Shown in pieces: positions 7,536 through 57,607 of a stretch of 64,000 nucleotides of DNA. The position numbers and the translations under genes are program-made. The DNA is from an uncultured Gemmatimonadaceae bacterium. GTDB taxonomy: Bacteria; Gemmatimonadota; Gemmatimonadetes; Gemmatimonadales; Gemmatimonadaceae. The stretch's first letter is position 1; every line of letters starts with the position of its first letter. The notes under the pieces were generated by a model, which ran no database searches, was not told the origin of the DNA, and saw only the letters and a list, made by a program, of their open reading frames with translations. The DNA is taken from the NCBI GenBank assembly GCA_963790305.1, contig CAWBOC010000013.1, forward strand, positions 32,001-96,000. Direction: 5' to 3'.

Positions 7536-8035
7536 TGGCTGGCGTCCTTGGCGTGTTCCGCGAGCTCGATGCTGCTGTCGATGCCATCGCCGCCCTTCGT
7601 CAGGCGAAGGCGGGGTCGATCACCGTGTACAGTCCGACGCCGCGACACGAGTTCGAGCACGCGCTCGCGCACGGGCCAAGCGTCGTCAGGCGCTTCACGC
7701 TCATCGGCGGACTGCTCGGCGTCACCTTCGGCTTCTGGATCGCGATCTGGGTCTCCGAGTACTGGCCGATGGTGGTCGGCGGCAAACCCATTCCATCATG
7801 GGTCCCGTACACGATCATCGGGTTCGAGGTCATGGTGCTCGTCGGCGCGCTGTCGACCGTTTTCGGCATGTTCGCCGTGGCGCGGGTTCCGCGCCTGATG
7901 ATGACCGTTGGCTACGATGCGCGCTTCAGCGACGGCGATTACGGGATTTGGGTCGAGTGCCCGCCCGATCGCGAGGCGAAGGTGACGCAGGTGCTGCAGG
8001 AGAACGGAGCGGCGGAGGTGCGGCGTGAGCGCTGA
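7535..8035 (+). CDS. actD: ACIII ActD (DUF3341)
   Basis: VYSPTP, WPMVVGGKP and IGFE motifs; two TM helices; operon position. Confidence 0.85.
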   Translation: MAGVLGVFRELDAAVDAIAALRQAKAGSITVYSPTPRHEFEHALAHGPSVVRRFTLIGGLLGVTFGFWIAIWVSEYWPMVVGGKPIPSWVPYTIIGFEVMVLVGALSTVFGMFAVARVPRLMMTVGYDARFSDGDYGIWVECPPDREAKVTQVLQENGAAEVRRER

Positions 8036-12874: not shown

Positions 12875-13354
12875 ATGGCTACCAGCGTGTCATTGACATC
12901 CCCGCGCGTCGGGGATCTTGCGCCCGACTTCTCGCTCGACTCCACGGCGGGCGCGCCCGCGCGACTCTCCGATTTCCGCGGTGAGCGCAACGTCCTGCTG
13001 GCGTTTTTTCCGCTCGCGTTCACGAGCACGTGTACGGCCGAGGTGTGCGAGTTCAGCAACGACTTCGATCGTTATGCCGGCGCGCGCGTCGCGGTGCTGC
13101 CGATCTCGGTCGATTCCGTTCCCACGCTGCGCGAGTTCAAGGCGAAGCACGCCATTCGTGTCGACATGCTCAGTGACTTCCGCCGCGACGTCTCACGTCT
13201 CTACGGCGTGCTCGATGAGGAACGGTTTTTCGCTCGACGCGCGTACGTGCTGATCGATCGACGCGGGGTCGTGCGATGGTCGCACGTCGAGGATCAGCTC
13301 GGCCATCGGCGACAGACGGACGAGCTTCTCGCCAGGATCGAGGAGCTGGACTAG
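12875..13354 (+). CDS. Peroxiredoxin (AhpE/BCP-like, Cys-type)
   Basis: [16 protein letters not shown] (PxxxTxxC), RRAYVLID. Confidence 0.88.
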
Positions 13355-43903: not shown

Positions 43904-45238
43904 GTGCAGGCTTCCTCTACCGCCGGCAATCGTCCCGCTCCGCGGCCCGCGACCGGCCGCCTCGGCGTGCTCACGCCCGGTCTCGGTGCGGTGGCTACAA
44001 CGTTCATCGCTGGCGTCGAGAGCATACGTCGGGGCCTCTCGAAGCCGATCGGCTCGCTCACCCAGATGGCGACGATCAGGCTTGGCAAACGGACCGACAA
44101 ACGGTCTCCGTACATCAAGGAATTCGTCCCGCTCGCGAACCTCGAGGATCTCGTGTTCGGCGCGTGGGATCCCATTCCCGATGACGCGCTCACGGCCGCG
44201 CGCAAAGCCGGTGTGCTCCAGGACAAGCATCTCGAGCCCATCGCAGATTTTCTTGCCGCCATCAAGCCAATGCCGGCGGTGTTCGATCAGAAATATGTCT
44301 CGCGTCTCTCCGGGACGAACGTCAAGAAAGGAAAATCGAAACGCGACCTTGCGGAGCAGCTGCGCCAGGACATTCGGGAGTTCAAGGCCAAGCACAAGCT
44401 GGATCGTCTCGTGATGGTGTGGTGTGCCTCGACCGAGGTGTACATCAAGGCCGGTCCGCAGCACGCCACCATTGAGCAGTTCGAGAAGGCGATGGATCGG
44501 AACGATGAAGCGATCGCTCCGTCGATGCTGTACGCGTGGGCCGCGATCATGGAGGGCGTGCCGTTCGCGAACGGCGCCCCGAACCTCACGGTCGACACGC
44601 CCGCGCTTCTTCAGCTCGCTCTGTCGCGCGGCGTCCCGGTGTCCGGAAAGGATTTCAAGACCGGTCAGACGTGGATGAAGACCGTCATCGCCCCTGGACT
44701 CAAGGCGCGCATGCTGGGGCTGGAGGGATGGTATTCGACCAACATCCTTGGCAATCGCGACGGCGAGGTGCTGGACGATCCGGCGTCGTTCAAGACGAAG
44801 GAGGAGTCGAAGCTCAGCGTGCTGCATACGATTCTGCAGCCGGAGCTCTATCCAGACCTCTACAACGGCTTCTCGCACGTCGTGCGCATCAACTACTACC
44901 CGCCGCGCGGCGACAACAAGGAAGGCTGGGACAACATCGACATCATTGGGTGGATGGGGTACCCAATGCAGATCAAGGTGAATTTCCTCTGTCGCGACTC
45001 GATTCTCGCCGCGCCAATTGTTCTCGATCTCGCCTTGTTCATGGACTTCGCCCAGCGCGCAGGGATGAAGGGAATTCAGGAATGGCTGTCGTTCTACTTC
45101 AAGAGTCCCATGGCGGCGCAGGGGCTACAGCCGGAGCATGACCTGTTCATTCAGCAGACGAAGCTCAAAAACACGCTCCGGCATCTCATGGGCGAGGACC
45201 AAATCACGCACCTCGGACTGGAGTACTACCCCTCGTGA
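43904..45238 (+). CDS. ino1: myo-Inositol-1-phosphate synthase
   Basis: GLGAVATT, GKDFKTGQT, NILGNRDG, GDNKEGWD, RDSILAAPIVLDL. Confidence 0.92.
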   Translation: MQASSTAGNRPAPRPATGRLGVLTPGLGAVATTFIAGVESIRRGLSKPIGSLTQMATIRLGKRTDKRSPYIKEFVPLANLEDLVFGAWDPIPDDALTAARKAGVLQDKHLEPIADFLAAIKPMPAVFDQKYVSRLSGTNVKKGKSKRDLAEQLRQDIREFKAKHKLDRLVMVWCASTEVYIKAGPQHATIEQFEKAMDRNDEAIAPSMLYAWAAIMEGVPFANGAPNLTVDTPALLQLALSRGVPVSGKDFKTGQTWMKTVIAPGLKARMLGLEGWYSTNILGNRDGEVLDDPASFKTKEESKLSVLHTILQPELYPDLYNGFSHVVRINYYPPRGDNKEGWDNIDIIGWMGYPMQIKVNFLCRDSILAAPIVLDLALFMDFAQRAGMKGIQEWLSFYFKSPMAAQGLQPEHDLFIQQTKLKNTLRHLMGEDQITHLGLEYYPS

Positions 45239-45687
45239 GGCATCCCGTGCGGGCGATACTGGCGGCCCTCGCGCTATTCGCGACGGCATGCCGGCCGGAG
45301 CCGCAGCAATTCGCGCTGCGGCTCGATTCGGACAGCTATTCCTTCCGCGTGACGGCGGACCCGCTGCCGCCGCGCGCGCGTGAGATCACGCGATACATGG
45401 TCGTGGTCAGCGACAGAAAGACCAAGCAGCCGATCGAAGGTGGGGAAGGGCGGATCTTTGCGAGCAATGCCGGTCCCGACGATCCGGACCGCCGCACGGT
45501 CTGGGATGGTCTCGCGGCCGCCGAGCAGGTAGGGACGTATACCGCGAACATGAACTTCGTGACGGCGGGGAATTGGGCGATGGCGCTCGAGTTCCGTCGG
45601 GATTCGACGAGCCGCCTGGAGCGGATCGACTGGCGTCAGGACATTCGCCGCGAAGGGCCCGCCTTCCCCGGAGACACCGGCTCATGA
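45235..45687 (+). CDS. Hypothetical lipoprotein (YtkA/FixH-like Ig fold, tentative)
   Basis: Lipobox FATAC; GTYTANMNFVTAGNW. Confidence 0.6.
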   Translation: MRHPVRAILAALALFATACRPEPQQFALRLDSDSYSFRVTADPLPPRAREITRYMVVVSDRKTKQPIEGGEGRIFASNAGPDDPDRRTVWDGLAAAEQVGTYTANMNFVTAGNWAMALEFRRDSTSRLERIDWRQDIRREGPAFPGDTGS

Positions 45688-45978
45688 GGCATTACCATCG
45701 CACGCACGTCACCCCCGAGCTCGGTGATGACCGCCGCGGATGAGTATTTCCCGACGCTCAATCTCGCTCGTCAGGCACCATCGCTGCGCTCGCGCGTCTA
45801 TGCTGGCGAGCTCGGCACCGTGAAGGTGTCGGTCCGGCCGGAGGGAGGTCACTACACCTTCATCGAGGCCGAGACCGATCAGGTCGGCGAGAGCCGGCTG
45901 GATCGTAACGTCAAGCGATTCTTCGTTCGCGTTCATCGTCAGGCGGAGCCATCGCACAAGCTGGCGGCCGCATACTGA
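45684..45978 (+). CDS. Small hypothetical protein; probable +1 frameshift near 45723
   Basis: ATG 45684 overlaps the upstream stop (MRHYHRTHVTPEL) and continues into ORF 45724..45978, whose stop overlaps the next start. Confidence 0.55.
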
Positions 45979-47138
45979 TGGCTCGTCGAAGCGGCTCCAG
46001 GGCGGAGGGACGTGGATCGCGGAGCCGCGCCACGACGGATCGCTCATCGCGACGCGGCGCGTCCGGGTCGCGCCCCTCCTCGCAGCTCGACCGCGCCCAG
46101 CAGCTCGAGCTCTACTATTGGATGCGGCTGACCCGGTCGCTCGAGGAGCGTCTCGTCAACCTGTACCGGCAGACGAAGGTCGTCGGCGGTCTGTTTCGCT
46201 CGTTAGGGCAGGAGGCCGACGCAGTCGGCAGCGCGTTCGCCCTCGAGCGCCGTGACGTGCTCTCGCCCCTCATCCGCAACCTGGGATCGATGCTCGTCAA
46301 GAGGGCCGAGCCGGTCGAGATCATCCGGCAATACATGGCGAAGGGAGACTCGCCGACCCGCGGACGCGAGCTGAACATCCACTACGGCGATCTCGAGAGG
46401 GGCTTCATTGGCCAGATCTCCCATCTGGGCGACATGGTTCCGGTGATGACGGGGGTGACGCTGTCGTTCAAGCTCCGCAACGAGCCGCGCGTCGGGCTCG
46501 TCTACGTGGGCGACGGCGCGACGTCCACGGGTGCCTTTCATGAGGGGATCAACTTCGCCGCGGTGCAGCGGTGCCCGCTCGTGGTGATCGTGGAGAACAA
46601 CGGGTACGCGTACTCGACGCCGATTTCGCGACAGACAGCCGTTACCGAATTGAAGGACAAGGCGCTTGCGTACGGGATTCCCGGTGTTCGCGCCGACGGC
46701 AACGATGTCCTCGCCGTCTACGACGTCACCAAAGAGGCCGTCGATCGCGCGCGTCGGGGCGAAGGCGTTACGCTCATCGAGCTCATGACGTATCGCCGCA
46801 AAGGGCACGCGGAGCACGACAACCAGTCGTATGTCCCGGGTGGCGAGATCGAGCGGTGGGAACGCGAGAATGATCCGGTGGATCGATATCTCCGCGTGTT
46901 GACCGAGGAGCTCGACTTCGACCATGCGGAGATTGCCGCGGTCGACGGGCGAGTGACCGAGGAGATCGATGTCGCGACCGACGCCGCGGAGTCGTCACCG
47001 ATGCCGGAGCCGACCAATGCGCTGGTCGGCATCTATGCTGATCCGGCCCGCGTCGAGCCGCTCTGGTACCGCGCGGGCATACGCAGCGCGGTCGATTCCC
47101 ACGAGCGCGCCGCCGGGTGGGGGGCGTTCAATGCCTGA
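45978..47138 (+). CDS. 2-oxoacid dehydrogenase E1 alpha (pyruvate or branched-chain)
   Basis: TPP motif GDGATSTG..ENNGYAYS; YRRKGHAEHD. Confidence 0.9.
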   Translation: MARRSGSRAEGRGSRSRATTDRSSRRGASGSRPSSQLDRAQQLELYYWMRLTRSLEERLVNLYRQTKVVGGLFRSLGQEADAVGSAFALERRDVLSPLIRNLGSMLVKRAEPVEIIRQYMAKGDSPTRGRELNIHYGDLERGFIGQISHLGDMVPVMTGVTLSFKLRNEPRVGLVYVGDGATSTGAFHEGINFAAVQRCPLVVIVENNGYAYSTPISRQTAVTELKDKALAYGIPGVRADGNDVLAVYDVTKEAVDRARRGEGVTLIELMTYRRKGHAEHDNQSYVPGGEIERWERENDPVDRYLRVLTEELDFDHAEIAAVDGRVTEEIDVATDAAESSPMPEPTNALVGIYADPARVEPLWYRAGIRSAVDSHERAAGWGAFNA

Positions 47139-48108
47139 AGCGACATATCTGGAGGCGATCCGTCAGGCGCTCTTCGAGGAGATGGAGCGCGACGAGAACG
47201 TGTTTCTTCTCGGGGAGGACATCGGCGCATACGGTGGCGCGTTCAAGGTCACGGATGGCTTGCTCGATCGGTTCGGCGAGCACCGGGTGATCGACACGCC
47301 CATTTCCGAGGCCGGCTTCGTCGGCGCCGCTGCCGGCGCCGCGCACATGGGCATGCGGCCGGTGGTCGAGATGCAGTTCATCGACTTCATCTCGTGTGCG
47401 TACGACATGCTGACGAACTACATCGCGACCTCTCGCTACCGCGCGATGCTGCCCTGTCCGCTGGTCGTCCGCGGACCGAGTGGTGGCTACGTGCGTGGAG
47501 GCCCGTTCCACTCGCAGAATCCGGAAGCGGCCTTCCTGCATACGCCCGGTCTCAAGATCGTGTACCCGGCGACGGCGAGTGACGCCAAGGGGTTGTTGAA
47601 GGCCGCAATTCGAGACGATGATCCAGTGCTGTTCTTCGAGCACAAGTATCTCTATCGGCGAATCAAGGAGGAGTTGCCCGACGGCGATCACGTGGTGCCG
47701 ATCGGAAAAGCACGCCGGGCGCGGGAAGGCAAGGATCTGTCGATCATCACGTACGCTGCCACGGTGTGGAAAGCCCTCGAGGCCGCCGAGCAGCTCGAGA
47801 AGGAGGATGGGCTCTCGGTGGAGATCGTCGATCTTCGCTCGTTGCTCCCGATGGATGATGTGGCGATCGTGGAGACGGTGAAGAGGACGAACCGCGTGAT
47901 GATCGTGCACGAGGACACGCGCACCGGCGGTGTGGCGGGAGAAGTGGCCGCCCGCATCAATGAGCAGGCGTTCGAGTGGCTCGATGCGCCCATCCTGCGC
48001 GTCACGGCGGCGGATGTTCCGCTTCCGTACTCACCGCCGCTCGAGGATTACGTGCTGCCGCAGACCACCGATATCGTCTCGGTGGCGCGCAAGCTCGCGG
48101 CGTACTGA
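47131..48108 (+). CDS. 2-oxoacid dehydrogenase E1 beta
   Basis: GEDIGAYGG, DTPISE, EMQFIDF, GPFHSQ, FFEHK. Confidence 0.92.
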   Translation: MPEATYLEAIRQALFEEMERDENVFLLGEDIGAYGGAFKVTDGLLDRFGEHRVIDTPISEAGFVGAAAGAAHMGMRPVVEMQFIDFISCAYDMLTNYIATSRYRAMLPCPLVVRGPSGGYVRGGPFHSQNPEAAFLHTPGLKIVYPATASDAKGLLKAAIRDDDPVLFFEHKYLYRRIKEELPDGDHVVPIGKARRAREGKDLSIITYAATVWKALEAAEQLEKEDGLSVEIVDLRSLLPMDDVAIVETVKRTNRVMIVHEDTRTGGVAGEVAARINEQAFEWLDAPILRVTAADVPLPYSPPLEDYVLPQTTDIVSVARKLAAY

Positions 48109-48109
48109 G

Positions 48110-48373
48110 GTGGCGAGGGGCGGAACGCCGCGATACGCCATCGGTTGCCTGTTCGCGATTCCCGGTTTCTTTGCGGGGGGGATGATCGGTGCGGCGGTAG
48201 CGAAGATCGTGGGTGCAGTGCGCGGATGCACGCCTCCGCAGGGGTTTCCGGCGTGCGACATTTGGTCGTTCGTCTTCCCGCTCGGCGTGGTGGGAGGCCT
48301 GGCACTGGCAGCGGCGATCGTGCTGCGGCTCGGGCCTGATCGCGGAGCGAAGGATCCAACGGAGAGGAGCTAG
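48110..48373 (+). CDS. Small two-TM hypothetical membrane protein
   Basis: GTG 48110; two hydrophobic helices with a C-x7-C loop; fills the gap between E1 beta and E2. Confidence 0.6.
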   Translation: MARGGTPRYAIGCLFAIPGFFAGGMIGAAVAKIVGAVRGCTPPQGFPACDIWSFVFPLGVVGGLALAAAIVLRLGPDRGAKDPTERS

Positions 48374-48375
48374 TC

Positions 48376-49744
48376 GTGGCACGAGTCGACGTGATCATGC
48401 CGCAGATGGGCGAGTCCATTGCCGAGGGCACGCTCTCCCGCTGGCTGAAGAAGGTCGGAGACGAGGTCAAGCGGGATGAGCCGATCTTCGAGATTTCCAC
48501 CGACAAGGTCGACGCCGAGATCCCGGCGCCATCGGCCGGGGTCCTGGCGGAAATCCTGGTGACGGAGGGGCAGACCGTTCCGGTGCAGACAGTGGTGGCG
48601 CGTCTCGAGACGGAGAAAGGCGCGGCCGTTGGAGCGCCGGGCGCGGCGGCACCGGCCGCGGGCGCCGGCGACGGAAACTCTCGTGCGAAAGCGCCGTCCG
48701 CCGTTGGGGGGCCCCCCCCGAAAACAGAATCTACCGCGCCGGCGGCCGCGAGCTCGCATCCTCCCGCTCGCCGCCCCAACCGCCAGAGCGGCAGCACCGA
48801 ACTCCCTCGAGGAACGACTTCGCGCGCGCAGCTCACCGCTCGTGCGGAAGATGGCGGCCGAGCACGGCATCGAGATCGCCACGCTTCAGGGCAGCGGGAT
48901 CGCTGGTCGGGTGACGAAACGTGATCTCCTCGGCTACCTCGAGACCGGGGGGCGAGGCGGGGCTGGGCAGCGCGTTGCACCCTCGATGCATGCCCCCGGT
49001 GGCGGCGATCAGCATGGGCCCGTTCCGGAACCATGGCCAGGCGATGTCGTCGAGCCCATGTCGGTCATGCGCCAGCGCATCAGCGAGCACATGGTGGTGT
49101 CGCGTCGCACGTCGGCTCACGTCACCTCGTTCATGGAGATCGACTTCACGCGCGTCGCGCGAATGCGCGCGAAGCACCGTGCGCGCTTCGAGGCCGAGAA
49201 CGGGCAGAAGCTCACCTACATGCCCTTCATCATCAAATCGGTGGTCGAGGGGCTCAAGGCGTTTCCGGTCATGAACTCGTCGGTCGCGCGCAACAGCGTG
49301 ATCTATCGCAAGCAGTTCAACATCGGCGTGGCCGTCGCGCTCGACTGGGGCTTGATCGTCCCGGTCATCAAGCAGGCCGACGAGCTGTCGCTCGTGGGAC
49401 TGACGAAAGCGCTCAACGATCTCGCGGCGCGGGCGCGGGCGAAGAAGCTCGATCCGCGCGAGGTTCAGGATGGGACGTTCACCATTACGAATCCCGGCGT
49501 TTTCGGCTCGCTGATGGGGACGCCGATCATCAGTCAGCCGCAGGTCGCGATCCTGGGCATTGGCACGATCGAGAAGCGTCCGAAGGTCGTTACAGGCGCG
49601 GATGGAGAAGACACCATCGCCATCCGGACCTGCTCGTTTTTCTCGATTTCATTCGACCACCGCATCATCGATGGTGCGGTGGCCGACCAATTCCTCGCGC
49701 ACGTGAAGCGCGGGATCGAATCATTTCCCGAACAGGGGTTCTGA
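48376..49744 (+). CDS. Dihydrolipoamide acyltransferase E2; +1 frameshift near 48765
   Basis: Lipoyl motif EISTDKV; subunit-binding SSPLVRKMA..GSGIAGRVTKRD; catalytic SFDHRIIDG. Confidence 0.9.
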
Positions 49745-49746
49745 GC

Positions 49747-50007
49747 ATGTCGCGCGCGCTCGCCATGCAGCGTACGATCGTGCCCGCACCGGAACGCAAG
49801 AGGCATCTCGAGCGTGCGCGCATGCGCCGCACGTACTACCAGCACGCCAATTGCCGATATTGGGTGTTCGAGGAGGCTGCGCTGCCGGGGGCGTTCATTG
49901 AATTCGTCGAAGCGTCGGATCGCGACATCCTGGATGCGGCGCTCGAGAACGCTCCGGATCGCCTCCTCGATCCGGCCCGCGTCTACGAGGAAGTGGAGCT
50001 GAGCTGA
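49747..50007 (+). CDS. Hypothetical protein
   Basis: ATG 49747 MSRALAMQR; tight operon spacing on both sides. Confidence 0.6.
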   Translation: MSRALAMQRTIVPAPERKRHLERARMRRTYYQHANCRYWVFEEAALPGAFIEFVEASDRDILDAALENAPDRLLDPARVYEEVELS

Positions 50008-50008
50008 A

Positions 50009-50275
50009 ATGCCATCCCGAACGATCACGGTCGACGGGGCGTCGTGGGACGTATATCCGTCCGGCCGCATCACCCAGTACGATCGCGACGAGTTCGGTCT
50101 CGTCTTCGTGCGCGGCACGGGACCTGACCGCGAAGTGCGCGTCACGCGCTATTCGCCGCAGGGCGCCCGCTCCCGGGAGCAGTCGCTCGCGGAGATGTCG
50201 GAGAGCGAGCTGAGACGTCTGTTCGACTTCTCGCAGCCGAGCTTCACGTCACCCGAGGCAGGCTACGCGCCGTGA
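50009..50275 (+). CDS. Hypothetical protein
   Basis: 88-aa ORF tightly packed between neighbours; stop overlaps the next start. Confidence 0.65.
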   Translation: MPSRTITVDGASWDVYPSGRITQYDRDEFGLVFVRGTGPDREVRVTRYSPQGARSREQSLAEMSESELRRLFDFSQPSFTSPEAGYAP

Positions 50276-51144
50276 CGGCTCCGGCGGCTCCGAACGGTAG
50301 CGCGGAGCGCTTCGTCGATCTGCACATGCACTCCACGGCGTCCGACGGTATCCTCTCTCCGGCCGCCGTCGTCGCTGCCGCGCGCGCGGCCGGCTTGGCG
50401 GCCATTGCGCTCACCGACCACGATACGCTCGAGGGCGTCCCCGAGGCACGCGCTGCAGGGGAAGCGCTCGGTGTGCGAGTCGTTGCGGGTGTGGAGCTCA
50501 GCGCGCATGAGGGCGACCGCGAGCTGCACGTCCTCGGACTGCACTTGACGCGACTCGCTGCGCTGGAGGATCGGCTGATTGCGCTGCGCGCCACGCGTCG
50601 CACCCGCGCCGCACAGATCGTCGAGAAGCTCCGCGCGTTAGGCTTTCCCATCGAGCTCGACGCGGTCTGGCGCGAGGCGGGGGAGGGAGCGGTCGGGCGG
50701 CCGCACGTCGCCCGCGTGCTGATCGCGAACGGCTGGGCAAAGGACCATCGCGATGCGTTCGATCGGCTCATTGGGAGCGGGCGGCCGGCGTACGTTCCGA
50801 AGCAGCGGCTCCCGCTCCCCGAGGCGGTCCACATGCTCCGCGAGGCGGGTGGCCTCGCCATCATCGCGCATCCAGGATCGGACGGCTCGCGGTCGCGGCT
50901 CGAGATGTTCAAGCGTATGGGATTCGATGGTGTCGAGGTCCGGCACCCGAGTCACAGCGTGGAGGACATCGCGCGGTTAGGCACGCTCGCCGATTACCTC
51001 GGTCTGGTACCGAGCGGAGGCTCGGACTGGCACGGCGCGGGCGAGGGCCCGCGAACTATTGGCAACATGCGCGTTCCGCACGCCTGGCTCGAGCGGCAGG
51101 ACACGCTGGTTCGCGAACGGACTACGTCGGAGCGAGTCGCATGA
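50272..51144 (+). CDS. PHP-domain phosphoesterase (TrpH/YciV-like)
   Basis: DLHMHSTASDG, LTDHD, GVELS, AHP, SGGSDWHG. Confidence 0.9.
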   Translation: MTAPAAPNGSAERFVDLHMHSTASDGILSPAAVVAAARAAGLAAIALTDHDTLEGVPEARAAGEALGVRVVAGVELSAHEGDRELHVLGLHLTRLAALEDRLIALRATRRTRAAQIVEKLRALGFPIELDAVWREAGEGAVGRPHVARVLIANGWAKDHRDAFDRLIGSGRPAYVPKQRLPLPEAVHMLREAGGLAIIAHPGSDGSRSRLEMFKRMGFDGVEVRHPSHSVEDIARLGTLADYLGLVPSGGSDWHGAGEGPRTIGNMRVPHAWLERQDTLVRERTTSERVA

Positions 51145-51590
51145 GCGAATTGTCCCCGCTGGGTGTGGGTTCCAGGGCGCCCGACTTCACCGCGAAGGGG
51201 AGCGATGGAGCGACCTACCGCTTGAGCGAGCTGCTCGCTCGCGGTCATGTCGCACTGTTCTTCTATCCCGGCAACAACACACCTGGCTGAAACCGTCAAC
51301 TCTCCGCCGTGCGCGATGAGATCGAGACGTTCCGAGCGAGCAACATACAGGCGCTGGGTGTGAACCCGGCCGGCGTCGACAGCCACGCGAGCTACGCGGC
51401 CAAGCTGAGCCTTCCGTTTCCGTTGCTCAGCGATCCGGACCGCGCGCTCGCGGGCGCGTATCACACGCTCAAGCCAGACGGACGCGGCATCCATCGCACC
51501 GTGTATGGCATTCGTGCCGACGGAACGATCGCGTTCGCTGCGCGCGGTGCACCGCTTCCCAATGACATTGTCGCGGCCTTTGAGGGCTAG
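51141..51590 (+). CDS. BCP/PrxQ-type peroxiredoxin with probable selenocysteine (TGA 51288-51290)
   Basis: MSELSPLGVGSRAPDFT...FFYPGNNTPG-TGA-NRQLSAVRD...FPLLSD...RTVY in one frame; TGA sits at the C of PxxxTxxC. Confidence 0.85.
51291..51331 (+). promoter_or_regulatory. Candidate bacterial SECIS element
   Basis: By-eye fold: cgtc/gacg, ctc/gag, tc/ga, cgc/gcg; apical loop containing GU about 17 nt after UGA. Confidence 0.55.
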
Positions 51591-52315
51591 CGAGAAATCC
51601 GGGCAGACGGCTCTGGTCACCGGCGCCGGCCGACGCATTGGCCGCGCGATCGCGGTAGCGCTCGGCGCCCGCGGCATGCAAGTGGCCGTCCATTATCATG
51701 GCGCCGAAGCGGGCGCTCGAGAGACGGTACGCGCGATCGAGAAGGCCGGTGGAGAAGGGTTCACCGTGCGCGCCGATCTGCGCGAAGCCGGAGCACCGGC
51801 GCGACTCGTCAGCGAGGCGGTCGAACGCCTCGGGTCGCTGCACGTGCTCGTGAACTCGGCCGCCGGTGATGATTCGAACGCCATTCGAGGACGTTAGCGA
51901 AGAGGTCTGGGATGAGATCTTCGCCCTCAATCTTCGCGCGCCATTCTTCTGTGCCCAGGCCGCGGCCGGTCGTATGCAGGACGGAGGGGTCATCATTAAC
52001 ATCGCCGACCTGGCCGCCTTCGAGGCGTGGACGGGCTACATCCCACATGGCGCGTCGAAGGCTGGCGTCGTGCACATCACCCGAGCACTCGCGAAGCGTC
52101 TCGCGCCACGGCTGCGGGTGAACGCGATCGCACCGGGAGCAGTGCTACTCCCGGACGAGTGGAGCGCCGCTGAGGCGGAACGCCTCATCGGCACTACGCC
52201 GCTCGGGCGTCTCGGATCGCCTGACGATGTGACCCAGGCGGTGTTGTACTTGATCGACGCCGACTACGTGACGGGCCAGACGATCATCGTCGACGGCGGA
52301 CGTCATGTCCGCTAG
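51580..52315 (+). CDS. SDR oxidoreductase (pteridine reductase/FolM-like); +1 frameshift near 51865
   Basis: ALVTGAGRRIG, LVNSAA, HGASK in place of YxxxK, RVNAIAPG, VTGQTIIVDGG. Confidence 0.82.
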
Positions 52316-53069
52316 TCGCGCGTCGCTGGCCTATCGGAGCATCATCATCGTGGGTGGGGGATGCTACGGGTCGTATTACGTCCGTCAGCTGCTGCGAGCT
52401 CGCAACGCCGGCGCGCTGGGGTTCGACCGTCTTGTCGTCGTTGATCGCAACGACGCGTGTGCCGTGGCGACGACCTGGCCGCAGGAACCCACGGTCAGCG
52501 TGGTCTGCAGCGATTGGGCGGCGTTCTTCGATGACTACCTTCGCGTCGCGTCGGCGACCGGCCTCCCGAGCTGCGACGCGATCGTTCCGTCGCCTCTCAT
52601 GCCGCACCTCATGTTCGATTGGCTCCTGCGCCGCGCGCGAGAACGCTGGCCGCAGCGGCCGGTGGAGCGGCGCCCGTTGCAGCGCCCGCCGAACGTTCCA
52701 TGGCAGCGCGCCCTTCCGTCAGGCACGCACGTGGTCAGCTTCGCCGAGTGGATGTGCCCGGTGAATTGCATCGAGCCGGCGACGTGTCCTGCGATCAAGG
52801 CGCCTCGCACGTGGAGCATGCCAACGGCCGTGCGGGCGTATGTCGACGCCCAGCCAACGGAGGCCTCGCCCCTTGCGGGGCCGATCATTTTCCATTGTGA
52901 GCATCGCGCGTACGGAGTGGGTATGTTCGATACCCAGGACGTGCTGAACGGCGACGCGCTCGTCGCACGTGCCGCGGCGAACACACCTGCGGATGTACTT
53001 GTGGGTACCGTGTCGCACTGCCATGGGGCTCTCGACGTGCTCCACGTAGGTCACGGGCACGTCGCCTGA
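52305..53069 (+). CDS. Hypothetical protein with a Rossmann-like N-terminus and Cys/His clusters
   Basis: IIIVGGGCYG; WMCPVNCIEPATCP; FHCEH; SHCHG. Confidence 0.7.
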   Translation: MSASRASLAYRSIIIVGGGCYGSYYVRQLLRARNAGALGFDRLVVVDRNDACAVATTWPQEPTVSVVCSDWAAFFDDYLRVASATGLPSCDAIVPSPLMPHLMFDWLLRRARERWPQRPVERRPLQRPPNVPWQRALPSGTHVVSFAEWMCPVNCIEPATCPAIKAPRTWSMPTAVRAYVDAQPTEASPLAGPIIFHCEHRAYGVGMFDTQDVLNGDALVARAAANTPADVLVGTVSHCHGALDVLHVGHGHVA

Positions 53070-53111
53070 CGTCCCGGCGTTCATCGAGAGGGGAGACCGA
53101 CGAGAGAGGCG

Positions 53112-54098
53112 ATGGCGAACACGCACGAATACGAGGTCGTGATCATCGGTGCCGGTCCTGCCGGCATGACCGCCGGCATGTATGCCGGCCGGGCAATGTT
53201 GCGCGCCGTAGTGCTCGAACGCGGGGCGCCTGGCGGGGAGCTGCTCAACACGGAGATCATCGAGGACTATCCGGGCTTCGAGCACATCGAGGGCTGGGAC
53301 CTCGCGCAGAGGTTCGACTCGCACGCGCGGAAATTCGGGTCGGAACTGCACACCGCCACCGTCGAGCGAGTCCGAAAGGCCGACGATGGCTGGTTCGAGA
53401 CGGTTACCGACTCGGGCGACGTCTATCGCTCGCCAACGGTCATCCTGACTGCGGGGGGAACGCCCGTGAAGCTCGGCGTCCCTGGCGAGCTCGAGTACGC
53501 CGGGAAGGGGGTGTCGTACTGCGCGATTTGCGACGGCGCCTTTTTCAAGGGACATCGGATCGCGGTCGTTGGTGGAGGTGATGCGGCCGTCGAAGAAGCG
53601 GATTTCCTGACGCGTTATGCGGAGAAGGTCTACCTCATCCATCGCCGTGACCAGCTGCGTGCGTCGAAGATTCTGCAGAAGCGCGTGTTCGACAATCCGA
53701 AGATCGAGCTCATCTGGAACACCGTGGTCGATCGCATCGAGGGCGATGCCAAGGGTCTGGTGCGGGCGCTCCATCTTCACAATGTCGTCACCGATGCGAG
53801 CTCGGTCCTGGACGCGACGGGCCTGTTCGTGTTCATCGGCTTCCGCCCGAATACCGGCATCGTCGACGGGCACGCGCGTCATGACGAGGGCGGGTATCTC
53901 GTCACCGACGCCAATATGGAGACGACCATTCGCGGGCTATTCGCCGCGGGGGACGTGCGAGCACAGCTGGCACGGCAGGTGACGACCGCGGTGGGCGACG
54001 CGACGACGGCGGCGATCGCGGCGGAGAAATACCTCACCGCGCTCAAGAACGGCCAACTCGACCCGCAGCTGCTGTCGAGCGGTGGTTACGCCGTGTGA
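53112..54098 (+). CDS. trxB: Thioredoxin reductase
   Basis: GAGPAG, GVSYCAICDG, GGGDAAVEE, HRRD, FAAGD. Confidence 0.95.
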   Translation: MANTHEYEVVIIGAGPAGMTAGMYAGRAMLRAVVLERGAPGGELLNTEIIEDYPGFEHIEGWDLAQRFDSHARKFGSELHTATVERVRKADDGWFETVTDSGDVYRSPTVILTAGGTPVKLGVPGELEYAGKGVSYCAICDGAFFKGHRIAVVGGGDAAVEEADFLTRYAEKVYLIHRRDQLRASKILQKRVFDNPKIELIWNTVVDRIEGDAKGLVRALHLHNVVTDASSVLDATGLFVFIGFRPNTGIVDGHARHDEGGYLVTDANMETTIRGLFAAGDVRAQLARQVTTAVGDATTAAIAAEKYLTALKNGQLDPQLLSSGGYAV

Positions 54099-54742
54099 TC
54101 GTCCGCACGCTGACGGTGGGACCGCTGGAGGAGAATGCGTACCTGGTCGTCGACGACACGACGCGTCGCGCCGTGCTCATCGATCCCGGCGACGAGCCGG
54201 ATCGCCTGCTCGAGGCGGTGCGGGATGACCGGGCCGACCTCGACGCCATCTGGCTCACGCACGCCCACATGGATCACGTCGGGGCCATCGCGGGGATCGT
54301 CCGACACACCCCGGTGCCGATCTACGTGCATCCGAGCGAGCGCCCCATTTATGACAGCGCTGCACAGCACGGACTGGTGTTCGGGCTGCGGGTAGAGCAA
54401 CCCCCGCCGCCCGATCGCGATCTGGCGGACGGTGACACACTGCACGTCGGGACGCTGTCGTTCTCGGTCATTCATGTTCCGGGGCACGCACCCGGGCACG
54501 TCGCGATTCATGGGAATGGCGTCGCTTTCGTGGGCGACTGCCTGTTCGCCGGATCGGTGGGGCGCACGGACCTGCCTCTCGCCAACGGGGCGCAGCTCGC
54601 GCGCTCCCTCGAGCGCATCTGCGCACTGCCTGACGACACAATTGCGTACCCCGGTCACGGTCCCGCGACCAGTATCGGGCGCGAGAAGCGAACGAATCCG
54701 TTCTTGACCGGCGCCGTTCGCCTCACAGGGTTCGACCGGTAG
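54095..54742 (+). CDS. MBL-fold metallohydrolase (glyoxalase II-like)
   Basis: THAHMDH, PGHAPG, GDCLF, PGHG. Confidence 0.9.
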   Translation: MIVRTLTVGPLEENAYLVVDDTTRRAVLIDPGDEPDRLLEAVRDDRADLDAIWLTHAHMDHVGAIAGIVRHTPVPIYVHPSERPIYDSAAQHGLVFGLRVEQPPPPDRDLADGDTLHVGTLSFSVIHVPGHAPGHVAIHGNGVAFVGDCLFAGSVGRTDLPLANGAQLARSLERICALPDDTIAYPGHGPATSIGREKRTNPFLTGAVRLTGFDR

Positions 54743-54862
54743 AGCGGACGAGCTGAACGCCTGAAAACTGTGCTCCCGGCCGTTGTCTGTACGCTGTCCA
54801 TCAGTACACATTGCATTGAGCGCCACGCGACGTGGTGCGCGACGTCTCTCTCTGGAGCCACC

Positions 54863-55650
54863 ATGCGCCGCCACCTTTGCCTGTCCGCCCTCCTGCCCCT
54901 CGGGTTGGCGGCCTGCCTGGATCCCGACCCCGTTCCGGAGTCCAACTACGGCATCATCGGCCTGACGACCGTCGTCACGCCGGTCGATACCCTGCTTTCG
55001 CCTGAAGCGCAGTTTTACCGCACAGGGCTGCTGGGCCTGCCGACGAGCCGCGTCAGCTCCGACCAGTGTCAGATCGCGGCATACCCGACACCCTCGCAAG
55101 GCACCCAGCTTCCGCGGTTCCTGGACGCGGGAGACAGCGTTGCCGTATCGACCGCCACGACTACGAAATTCCTGTTCCCGAGCACCGGCGCCAATGGCGA
55201 ATCCTACGTGCTGGGACAGACGGACGAATTTGCATTCCAGCCCGGTGAACGGGTCACCATTACCGTGCCCGGCGCGCCCGGTGGATTCACGAACGGAACG
55301 ATCGACGTCGTCACGGCGCACGCATTCACCTTGGGGCCGATCGCCGCGTCCCCGCCGCCCGACTCTTCCCTCAAGCTGACGTGGGCGCCGCGTGGCGACG
55401 ACAGCACCAAGATGCTCATCTCCATCCAGTACGCCGTGCCCCCCAGCTTCAGGCGAACCAGCAGATCTTCTGCTCCCTCCTCGACGATGGGGCCGCCGAG
55501 ATTCCGTCGATCCTCCTCACCCAGTACCGGACGGCGTCGGTCGGCTCGAGGTCGTTCGAGGCAGCCCGCTGGCGCGTATCGGCCAGGGAGGTCACTGGCG
55601 GCGTGCTTCTGGTGATTTCGGCGTTCGAAGTCGAGGACACCATCGACTGA
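54863..55650 (+). CDS. Hypothetical lipoprotein; -1 frameshift near 55445
   Basis: GGAG then ATG 54863; lipobox GLAAC; C-terminus (QIFCSLLDDG..EDTID) in ORF 55381..55650. Confidence 0.6.
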
Positions 55651-55684
55651 GCCCCGCTCCACGACTGTTCTTTCTTCGCGACCC

Positions 55685-57112
55685 ATGACATCCGCGACGC
55701 GCACCGAGAAGGATCCGTTAGGCACGAAGGAGGTTCCCGCCGGCGCGCTCTACGGCGTGCAGACGTTGCGCGCCGCCGAGAATTTTCCGATCAGCGGGCT
55801 GCGCTCGCTGCCCGCGTTCGTGCTGGCGACGGTGTGGATCAAGAAGGCGGCGGCGCTGACGCACAAGGAGACGGGGCGGCTCGAGGGTCGCCTCGCCGAC
55901 GCGATCGTCCGGGCGGCTGACGAGGTCGTCGCGGGCGAGCATCGCGATCAGTTCGTCGTCGACGTGTTCCAGGCCGGTGCGGGCACGTCGCACAACATGA
56001 ACGTCAACGAGGTGCTGGCGAATCGCGCGAACGAGCTCCTGGGCGCCAAGCGCGGGGCGTACGCGCCGGTGCATCCGAACGATCACGTCAACATGGCGCA
56101 GTCGACGAACGACGTCATTCCGACCGCCATCCGTCTTGCGTGCCTCGCGCAGCTGCAGCCACTCGCCGACGCGTTCACGGCGATGAGTGGCGCGCTGCGA
56201 AAAAAGGGTGAGGAGTTCGACGACGTGGTGAAGTCGGGGCGCACCCACCTGCAGGATGCGATGCCCATCCGCCTGGGGCAGGAGTTTCATGCGTACGCCG
56301 GCTCGATCGAGCGCGGGCTGCGCCGGGTGACGGAGGCTGCCGACTATCTCCGCGATCTGGGGATTGGCGGCAGCGCCGTGGGCACTGGCGTGAACGTCGA
56401 GCCCGAGTACCCGGAGAAGATGGTGAAGCACCTGCGCGCGATGACACGGCTCGATCTCCGGGTCGGAAAGGACCGCGTGCAGCTCATGCAGAGCATGGGC
56501 GACGCCGCCGGCTTCAGCGCGCAGCTCCGCGTGCTCGCGCTCGATGTGAGCAAGATCGCCAGCGATCTGCGGCTGATGGCGAGTGGGCCGCGGACCGGCC
56601 TCGACGAGATTCGGCTGCCGGCCGTGCAGCCCGGCTCCTCGATCATGCCCGGGAAGATCAATCCGTCGATCCCGGAGATGGTGAACCAGGTTTGCTTCCA
56701 GGTCGTCGGCAACGACGCGTGCGTCGCGGTGTCGGCGGAGCATGGACAGCTCGAGCTCAACGTGATGATGCCGGTGATCGCGTACAACGTGCTGCTGTCG
56801 ATGCAGATCCTTACCACGTCGTGCACCGTCTTCACCGATCGATGCATCGTCGGGATCGAAGCGAACGAAGCAATGGCCGCGTACTGGCTCGAGCGCTCCG
56901 CGGCACTGGCGACGGCGCTCGCGCCCCAGATCGGGTATGCCGCGGCCGCTGAGCTGAGCAAGCGGTCGGTCAAGGAGAACGTGCTGATTCGGGAGCTGGT
57001 GACGCGCGAGCGGGTTCTTCCCGCCGATCAGATCGACGAAGTGCTCGACCTGCGAAAAATGACCGAAATCGGCGTTCCAGGCGGCAAGCACGGCGCTGTC
57101 GCGGCCGGCTAG
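55685..57112 (+). CDS. aspA: Aspartate ammonia-lyase (fumarase/aspartase family)
   Basis: QAGAGTSHNMNVNE, HPNDHVN, GRTHLQDA, GSSIMPGKINP. Confidence 0.85.
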   Translation: MTSATRTEKDPLGTKEVPAGALYGVQTLRAAENFPISGLRSLPAFVLATVWIKKAAALTHKETGRLEGRLADAIVRAADEVVAGEHRDQFVVDVFQAGAGTSHNMNVNEVLANRANELLGAKRGAYAPVHPNDHVNMAQSTNDVIPTAIRLACLAQLQPLADAFTAMSGALRKKGEEFDDVVKSGRTHLQDAMPIRLGQEFHAYAGSIERGLRRVTEAADYLRDLGIGGSAVGTGVNVEPEYPEKMVKHLRAMTRLDLRVGKDRVQLMQSMGDAAGFSAQLRVLALDVSKIASDLRLMASGPRTGLDEIRLPAVQPGSSIMPGKINPSIPEMVNQVCFQVVGNDACVAVSAEHGQLELNVMMPVIAYNVLLSMQILTTSCTVFTDRCIVGIEANEAMAAYWLERSAALATALAPQIGYAAAAELSKRSVKENVLIRELVTRERVLPADQIDEVLDLRKMTEIGVPGGKHGAVAAG

Positions 57113-57150
57113 CCTTGTTCCTCTCGCCAAGCGCTACCTATCGTGAAGAC

Positions 57151-57607
57151 GTGCGGATAACGACCTGGGCCGAGTACGGCGTGATCTGCGCTTTGCATCT
57201 CGCGAAGCGGGCGGAGCAGGGGCCGGTCACGGGTCGCGACATCGCCGAGCGCGAGCGCCTGCCCACCGATTACGTCGAGCAGATCCTGCTCCGTCTCCGA
57301 CGAGCCGACCTCGTGTCCAGCGTGCGAGGCGCGCGCGGCGGATATCGGTTGGCACGCCATCCCGTCGGAGATCTCCATCCGCGATGTCATTCACGCATCG
57401 GAGCTCACCACCTTCGACCTCCACTGCGTGTCGCATCCGGTCGACGAGGAGCGCTGCGCCGCGTCGCACGAGTGTAGCATTCGGCCGGTGTGGCTCATGC
57501 TCCAGCGGCGCATCGATGATGTGCTCGAGAGCGTGAGCCTCGCGGATTTGCTTCACGACGAGCCGACGGTGCGGCAGCGCGTCGGCCTTCCGGTGCTGCA
57601 GGCCTGA
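57151..57607 (+). CDS. Rrf2-family regulator, IscR-like with three Cys; +1 frameshift near 57362
   Basis: MRITTWAEYG, YVEQIL, SVRGARGGY; after the shift LHCVSHPVDEERCAASHECSIRPVW to TGA 57607. Confidence 0.85.

Follow-up and report, generated by a model that had tools for sequence, protein, structure and literature searches.

The segment from 51141 to 51590 on the forward strand of the window, by which we mean the whole 64,000-nucleotide stretch analysed, very probably encodes, as one intact gene, a BCP/PrxQ-like peroxiredoxin of the cytoplasm with selenocysteine (Sec) as its peroxidatic residue, a reading built on sequence comparison. Positions are those of the window unless a contig (C number) of the genome under study (G000) is named; related genomes and loci carry G and L numbers. 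The coding sequence holds 149 codons and opens with the ATG at 51141, which overlaps the stop codon of a PHP-family phosphoesterase gene in the tetranucleotide ATGA (51141-51144). The frame runs through ...FFYPGNNTPG to a TGA at codon 50 (51288..51290, forward strand) and continues for exactly 99 codons up to the TAG at 51588-51590. This architecture had been described in the initial annotation, with about 99 codons estimated after the TGA, together with the claim that the protein has no other Cys; both were borne out, the read-through product being free of Cys and of any visible signal peptide.

The read-through protein matches the Pfam family AhpC-TSA over model positions 1-123 of 124 (E 4e-31). 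An AlphaFold model, obtained with Cys substituted for Sec, has a pLDDT of 96, and Foldseek with this model gave a best E of 7e-17, the top matches being BCP/PrxQ proteins with AhpE close behind. Family match, model and structural search together place a peroxiredoxin fold over the whole chain. The active-site motif of peroxiredoxins, Pxxx(T/S)xxC (PMC4749874), is present with U in place of C: Pro43 (51267-51269) and Thr47 (51279-51281), which bound the motif segment 51267..51281, and Sec50 are all kept in 30/30 close orthologues, and codon 50 aligns to the Cys of the solved BCP structure 5enu. The conserved catalytic arginine, Arg119 (51495..51497), is invariant in the 41-row alignment A1, and its counterpart in 5enu is the R of ERSTF. 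Ser55 (TCC, 51303..51305; like the other residues, on the forward strand) occupies the position of the α2 resolving Cys (CxxxxC) in outgroup PrxQ proteins, and its codon falls within the stem of the SECIS hairpin described below. A sequence search of the PDB at E<=1e-12 returned 2 matches only, the BCP proteins 5enu and 3drn. PrxQ models were also the best NCBIfam matches, yet scored below their cut-offs (67/260 and 65/140), and for this reason the assignment to BCP/PrxQ is likely rather than proven. It draws on the top NCBIfam, PDB and Foldseek matches and on the CxxxxC PrxQ outgroup in the tree described below, with AhpE TM-scores being equally high.

The in-frame TGA is a conserved feature of the gene. 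Across 61 genomes (G000 and 60 relatives), 30/30 close orthologues (E<1e-40, 52-99% identity) carry TGA at exactly codon 50, followed by 97-101 open codons; one of these comes from an unpublished genome (G015, locus L030), and the conclusions are the same without it. Among the GTDB matches listed, at least 58 loci comprise at least 53 with TGA, all labelled Gemmatimonadota, at least 4 with Cys from other phyla, and 1 spurious match. This set overlaps the 61-genome set, and the two, merged with loci found later, give 74 distinct TGA loci spanning three families plus another class. A sample of 301 genomes from the phylum contained 79 with a match at E<=1e-26, with one TGA inside the match in 70 (its position verified where DNA was fetched) and none in 9, all of which carry TGC. 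In metagenomes (best 80 of 586 loci), TGA was found in 28/28 loci at ≥50% identity and Cys in 52/52 of the more distant ones. Many of these genomes are kin, and kin do not count as independent observations. The alignment of TGA with the catalytic Cys of homologues, a comparison proposed in the initial annotation, thus came out in favour of the predicted 1-Sec peroxiredoxin, as did the Sec machinery in the genome. In two database homologues (P0031 and P0076) the peroxidatic residue is Arg or Ser, which may reflect single-base changes or read errors at the TGA. The 18 sequencing runs listed all had small shares (≤0.18), with no RNA run among them, and speak neither for nor against the reading.

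We searched G000 for the genes of Sec synthesis and insertion, as had been suggested, and all four components (selA, selB, selD and tRNA-Sec, the selC product) were found. The tRNA-Sec scores 73 bits and has the anticodon TCA; it lies at C6:123309-123401, just downstream of selD, and selA and selB are at separate loci. selD holds its own Sec codon at C6:122325, and another TGA first seen in this gene was discarded as an out-of-frame artefact beside a frameshift. The three protein genes are each frameshifted in the assembly: selA (C9:116362-117713) by two +1 indels, selB (C6:48867-50742) by one +1 and selD (C6:122397) by one -1. The TGA gene is present in 29 relatives, all of which carry two or more of selA/B/C/D; selA was matched in 26 of them and tRNA-Sec in 27. 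Gaps in the machinery occur in G003, G007, G040 and G054, each of which has two or more components; in G040 (95% complete) the TGA gene is present with selB and a Sec-type selD, and neither selA nor tRNA-Sec was matched. In 8/60 relatives there was neither a selA nor a tRNA-Sec match, and these have no close orthologue of the gene. Overall, tRNA-Sec was found in 49/61 genomes sampled.

The frameshifts raise the possibility that the gene is a true selenoprotein gene of the lineage and that this strain has lost Sec synthesis through indels in selA, selB and selD, so that it would not produce the protein. Single-base indels affect each of selA, selB and selD, with 4 events counted over 4.3 kb where 1.6 were expected (P ~0.07), and a coarser first estimate of the background was lower (0.19 per kb), which would make the excess larger. 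However, frameshifts are found in 50/202 orthologous genes compared with the same-genus genome G004 (84 events, 0.37 per kb), and 60 of the events are +1 insertions, a pattern of long-read error; since so many other genes are affected, the sel-gene indels are themselves likely assembly errors. None of the sel genes contains an in-frame stop, and dN/dS for them is 0.14, 0.12 and 0.07, inside the genome range (median 0.06, 90th percentile 0.16). Furthermore, the tRNA-Sec scores as in relatives, the Sec-dependent genes are open through their domains, and selA gives single unbroken matches in five same-genus relatives besides G004. Loss of the pathway in this strain therefore appears improbable, although it is the strongest of the alternatives to a functional Sec-peroxiredoxin. 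Elsewhere in the window, the gene for a dihydrolipoamide acyltransferase (48376-49744) is split by a frameshift and an Rrf2-like ORF (57115-57477) is apparently shortened, both of which fit the assembly-wide indel rate. At C13:39756-39843 (window ~7756-7843), ARAGORN calls a tRNA-like element whose 4-base anticodon is unassigned, which may be an indel error.

Bacterial Sec insertion depends on a SECIS hairpin next to the UGA, and the initial annotation had placed one at 51291-51331. We find a predicted hairpin at 51294..51329 on the forward strand (-9.9 kcal/mol for +1..+45), with G in the apical loop. Its outer stem (51294-51297/51326-51329) is not kept by relatives. The conserved part is a core at +10..+30 after the UGA (51300..51320, forward strand), with the apical loop starting at 51308, 17 nt after the UGA, and with G as the second loop base and U as the next. 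The criteria applied were a loop of 3-9 nt, G in the first two loop positions, a distance of 16-37 nt from the UGA and an MFE <= -7.5; the values found were a loop of 3 or 5 nt, G second, 17 nt and -9.9 kcal/mol. Folding energy was dropped as evidence, being no better than that of shuffled sequences (-10.4 against a mean of -13.5 kcal/mol, z +1.26; 183/200 shuffles fold as well), and the hairpin is taken as a signal because it is conserved, not because it is stable. The core alone is weak (approximately -5 kcal/mol), with two registers of similar probability (0.46 and 0.35); the best fold of the upper stem has 7 pairs with a 2-nt bulge, and the metagenome variants L190 and L191 favour the register with a 3-nt loop and bulged bases. 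Compared with the consensus bacterial SECIS as given in the Fig. 2 legend of PMC13188914 (a small loop with G second and then U, on an upper stem of 4-16 bp), the hairpin is alike in its 3-5 nt loop, its G and U, its 17 nt distance from the UGA and its overall MFE of -9.9 kcal/mol. It differs in an uninterrupted upper stem of only 3 bp and in the weak, bulged nature of the conserved core.

Conservation of this element is pronounced. The 21-nt core is exact in 72/74 distinct TGA loci, with only +27 varying freely (C/T), and the two remaining loci still keep a stem with G-U at the top. By contrast, 13/13 Cys forms deviate from the core, by 2-11 bases; 7 of the 13 sit at the same syntenic locus. 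Among the 30 orthologues, pairwise codon identity is 1.0 for codons 54-58, compared with 0.23-0.69 for 40 other conserved 4/6-fold columns. There is almost no covariation in the core, which is too invariant for covariation to show. The few informative variants (L031, L121, L190 and L191) each keep a stem with G-U at the top; L121, a Sec form from another class, does so with a different sequence that forms a perfect 6-bp stem and puts G-U in the loop equally far from the UGA. A genome without Sec machinery, relatives with Cys throughout and an unconserved hairpin, the outcome named in the initial annotation as telling against its reading, is thus not what we observe: machinery, TGA and 21-nt core are all present.

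The same region bears on whether the UGA is a real stop that splits the gene, with a 93-residue tail translated from the conserved GTG at 51309. The GTG is invariant and tail proteins are present in databases, but the GTG sits within the hairpin and is preceded by nothing resembling a Shine-Dalgarno sequence, and the adjacent CTC, TCC, GCC and CGC codons are equally frozen. As such a tail would have no catalytic residue and each Cys orthologue at this locus forms one unbroken ORF, we consider a split gene very unlikely.

Eight further genes of G000 have UGA at a redox Cys position, making, with the peroxiredoxin, nine candidates. This is a large set, though it may be incomplete; the eight others were assessed in G000 only. 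They encode an exported-looking TxxU peroxiredoxin with a signal-peptide-like N-terminus (C7:84022-84696, L153), a UxxC Prx-like protein (C6:402561-403241, L154), two CxxU AhpD-like proteins (C10:280202-280771, L155, and C10:438047-438745, L156), a SelW-like protein (C8:72498-72986, L157), an OsmC-like protein (C5:819036-819638, L158), FdhA (fdhA, C5:293355, L163) and SelD itself. In most of them a hairpin is present, with G close to the start of a loop at +17 to +20, the second Prx and the OsmC-like gene being less clear. A family spans the UGA in 7 of the 11 candidates scanned; 3 proved to be junctions of two neighbouring genes, and 1 has no family. The redox-motif filter outperformed a genome-wide SECIS screen on the loop pattern CGNNC, which was abandoned as its 43 matches were mostly spurious and most true candidates were missed.

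Some bacteria reassign UGA or place Cys at it, and the codon could in principle be read as Trp, Gly or Cys through a changed code or a suppressor tRNA. Here, ordinary genes end in TGA (for example the PHP gene at 51142-51144), the TCA anticodon occurs only in tRNA-Sec among the 50 tRNAs found, and the other conserved-looking in-frame TGAs correspond to redox Cys positions of known selenoprotein families. Such recoding, in favour of which the analysis turned up nothing, is very unlikely. That the TGA is instead a nonsense mutation or a sequencing error in a pseudogene, as an error-prone assembly and a hairpin that is not significant on its own might suggest, is effectively refuted by conservation and has a negligible probability, as the 74 loci share the TGA with an open and conserved frame downstream and the synonymous freeze tracks the TGA forms.

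The Sec and Cys forms of the peroxiredoxin are intermixed. An unrooted tree of 65 rows, 24 of which are database proteins known as protein only, places Sec and single-Cys forms on one side (support 98/92) and CxxxxC PrxQ proteins on the other. The Cys forms are nested among the Sec forms, well-supported branches force at least 5 label changes, and Cys forms verified at the DNA level occur in three places; monophyly of the Sec forms is rejected (AU p 1e-61). Five Cys forms occur in genomes that have both selA and tRNA-Sec, and four in genomes with a match to neither, so the use of Sec does not simply follow the machinery. The Cys form nearest to the conserved core is that of G151, a genome with no selA or tRNA-Sec match: it differs by 2 bases, and its hairpin region looks like a SECIS remnant. 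Because the same 21-nt core is found in Sec forms on all sides, repeated reversion from Sec to Cys is the more economical reading. The subfamily would then have arisen from a CxxxxC PrxQ and subsequently lost the resolving Cys, with Sec present in the ancestor of the Gemmatimonadales forms and several later returns to Cys. We also considered whether Sec had enabled the loss of the resolving Cys. This was rejected, as the α2 Cys is also absent in 34/37 full-length Cys homologues among the matches listed; this absence characterises the subfamily throughout, Cys forms included, and is not a consequence of Sec.

The gene lies in a compact and conserved neighbourhood on the forward strand. The upstream PHP-family phosphoesterase gene (50272..51144), whose stop overlaps the peroxiredoxin start, is found in 44/51 TGA loci with enough flank. 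Downstream, a short-chain dehydrogenase (SDR) gene (51580..52315; broken ORFs 51505-52315), split by a frameshift and probably overlapping the peroxiredoxin end with its start, is present in 40/45. The thioredoxin reductase gene trxB (53112..54098; TIGR01292 above cut-off), which encodes a candidate electron source, is present in 42/42. In 68/77 loci the distance from the peroxiredoxin stop to the start of the following gene is -20..+15 nt, and both the tight packing and the trxB neighbourhood are also found in Cys forms. Between SDR and trxB in many loci is a gene for an uncharacterised 254-residue protein (52305-53069) that begins with a Rossmann-like GxGxxG and contains several Cys/His motifs; it has no Pfam or NCBIfam match, and Atlas groups it with AF_1314 C-terminal domain proteins (score 0.98). 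An 88-residue protein with no family match is encoded just upstream (50009-50275) in almost all syntenic loci, those without the PHP gene included, and a second SDR gene is inserted directly after the peroxiredoxin in many Gemmatimonadales loci (L069:3332-4159). A promoter and terminator scan of 45000-56000 found nothing above chance. The Cys-type paralogue noted earlier at 12875 does exist (12875-13354, motif FPLAFTSTC), although it is distant, with 26% identity to the Sec-peroxiredoxin; its motif may resemble that of AhpE.

In the mechanism we propose, which follows the known bacterial pathway, SelD would supply selenophosphate and SelA would convert Ser-tRNA(Sec) to Sec-tRNA(Sec), which SelB bound to the hairpin would bring to UGA50; without selenium, translation would end at codon 50. 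By analogy with the chemistry of peroxiredoxins, Pro43, Thr47 and Arg119 would hold the selenolate of Sec50, which would attack H2O2 or an organic hydroperoxide and become a selenenic acid. With no resolving Cys in the protein, an outside thiol must resolve this intermediate, as is described for 1-Cys peroxiredoxins (PMC4749874). The likeliest candidate is thioredoxin, whose own reduction would fall to the TrxB encoded 1.5 kb downstream; a small-molecule thiol is the other candidate. Thioredoxin/TrxB is favoured from the gene neighbourhood alone, with much less confidence than the identity of the residue at codon 50. More speculatively, a single-selenol, thiol-less peroxiredoxin spread across a widespread order might be recycled by a route new for peroxiredoxins, either direct reduction by TrxB or storage of the oxidised Sec as a selenenylamide. 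We regard this as rather unlikely, but if true the Cys revertants at the same locus would provide matched Sec/Cys pairs for asking what benefit selenium brings. A weaker idea is that, with the next gene so close, translation that ends at UGA50 when selenium is scarce might exert a polar effect on the SDR-trxB genes; the Cys forms, however, are packed equally tightly.

The gene is misrepresented in current annotation. Truncation by gene callers had been foreseen, and is indeed the rule: the false tail ORF of 93 residues (51309..51590, forward strand) starts at a GTG that is Val57, at the SECIS apex, and 81 of the 120 database homologues among the matches listed cover the tail but lack the catalytic site, and many of these 81 carry the name 'peroxiredoxin Q/BCP'. 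The 39 that span the site have Cys in 37 cases and U in none. Reading through the UGA corrects this systematic mis-annotation, in which most database entries for the gene are 'peroxiredoxin' tails without an active site, and adds evidence for the use of Sec in many Gemmatimonadota. Our search of the open literature, bioRxiv supplements excepted, turned up no publication on selenoproteins of Gemmatimonadota; 'Gemmat' is absent from the accessible main text of the selenoprotein papers compared, and the deep-Sep supplements do not name the phylum. Rows in the supplement of BSepDB include Gemmatimonadota genomes in its input list, and the Gemmatimonadales peroxiredoxin genes may for that reason already be among its web records. 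PMC5029168, in its supplement, classes Gemmatimonas aurantiaca T-27, the type strain, as Sec-negative. A small predicted Sec enzyme (149 residues) that is free of Cys and has natural Cys counterparts would be a convenient pair for studying the catalytic value of Sec and 1-Sec recycling.

PrxU of Eubacterium acidaminophilum is an AhpC/Prx1-type enzyme from a strict anaerobe. It shares with the present protein a Sec at the peroxidatic position of a peroxiredoxin, but the PrxU model NF040737 gives 35 bits against a cut-off of 270 and has 233 positions, compared with 149 residues here. PrxU is the experimental reference given for the Sec-Prx family in PMC9312934. Similarity to BCP/PrxQ proteins (PDB 5enu, 5epf BcpB, 3drn Bcp1 and Xanthomonas PrxQ) is closer, with E 6e-22 for 5enu, TM-scores of 0.82-0.89, conserved P, T and R and the same size; the differences are Sec in place of Cys and the lack of a resolving Cys in either α2 or α3. 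According to PMC4749874, about a third of PrxQ proteins also have no resolving Cys, so its absence alone is not new. AhpE, the Mycobacterium 1-Cys peroxiredoxin (PDB 1xvw and 4xih), is alike in having a single catalytic chalcogen and in its TM-scores (0.87-0.90), but ranks lower in Foldseek, has 26-28% identity and is not among the 2 sequence matches at E<=1e-12.

The nearest catalogued relative is the Prx TxxU family (PF00578/COG1225, Bcp), listed as an experimentally verified prokaryotic selenoprotein family in PMC9312934 and PMC13188914, and put at 91 proteins in 78 genomes in 2016 in PMC5029168. The Gemmatimonadales protein resembles it in the AhpC-TSA domain, in PxxxTxxU with UGA at the peroxidatic Cys and in a SECIS directly downstream. 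It differs in belonging to a Gemmatimonadales subfamily, with NRQLSAVRDE after the Sec, and in having no resolving Cys. The repeated Sec-to-Cys changes of this subfamily also contrast with the table in PMC1794560, which gives 0 Sec-to-Cys and 5 Cys-to-Sec events for Prx, remnant SECIS elements being described there for other families. The predicted protein is thus a known kind of selenoprotein, and what is particular to it is its cytoplasmic nature, the missing resolving Cys, the conserved place upstream of trxB and the repeated changes from Sec to Cys.
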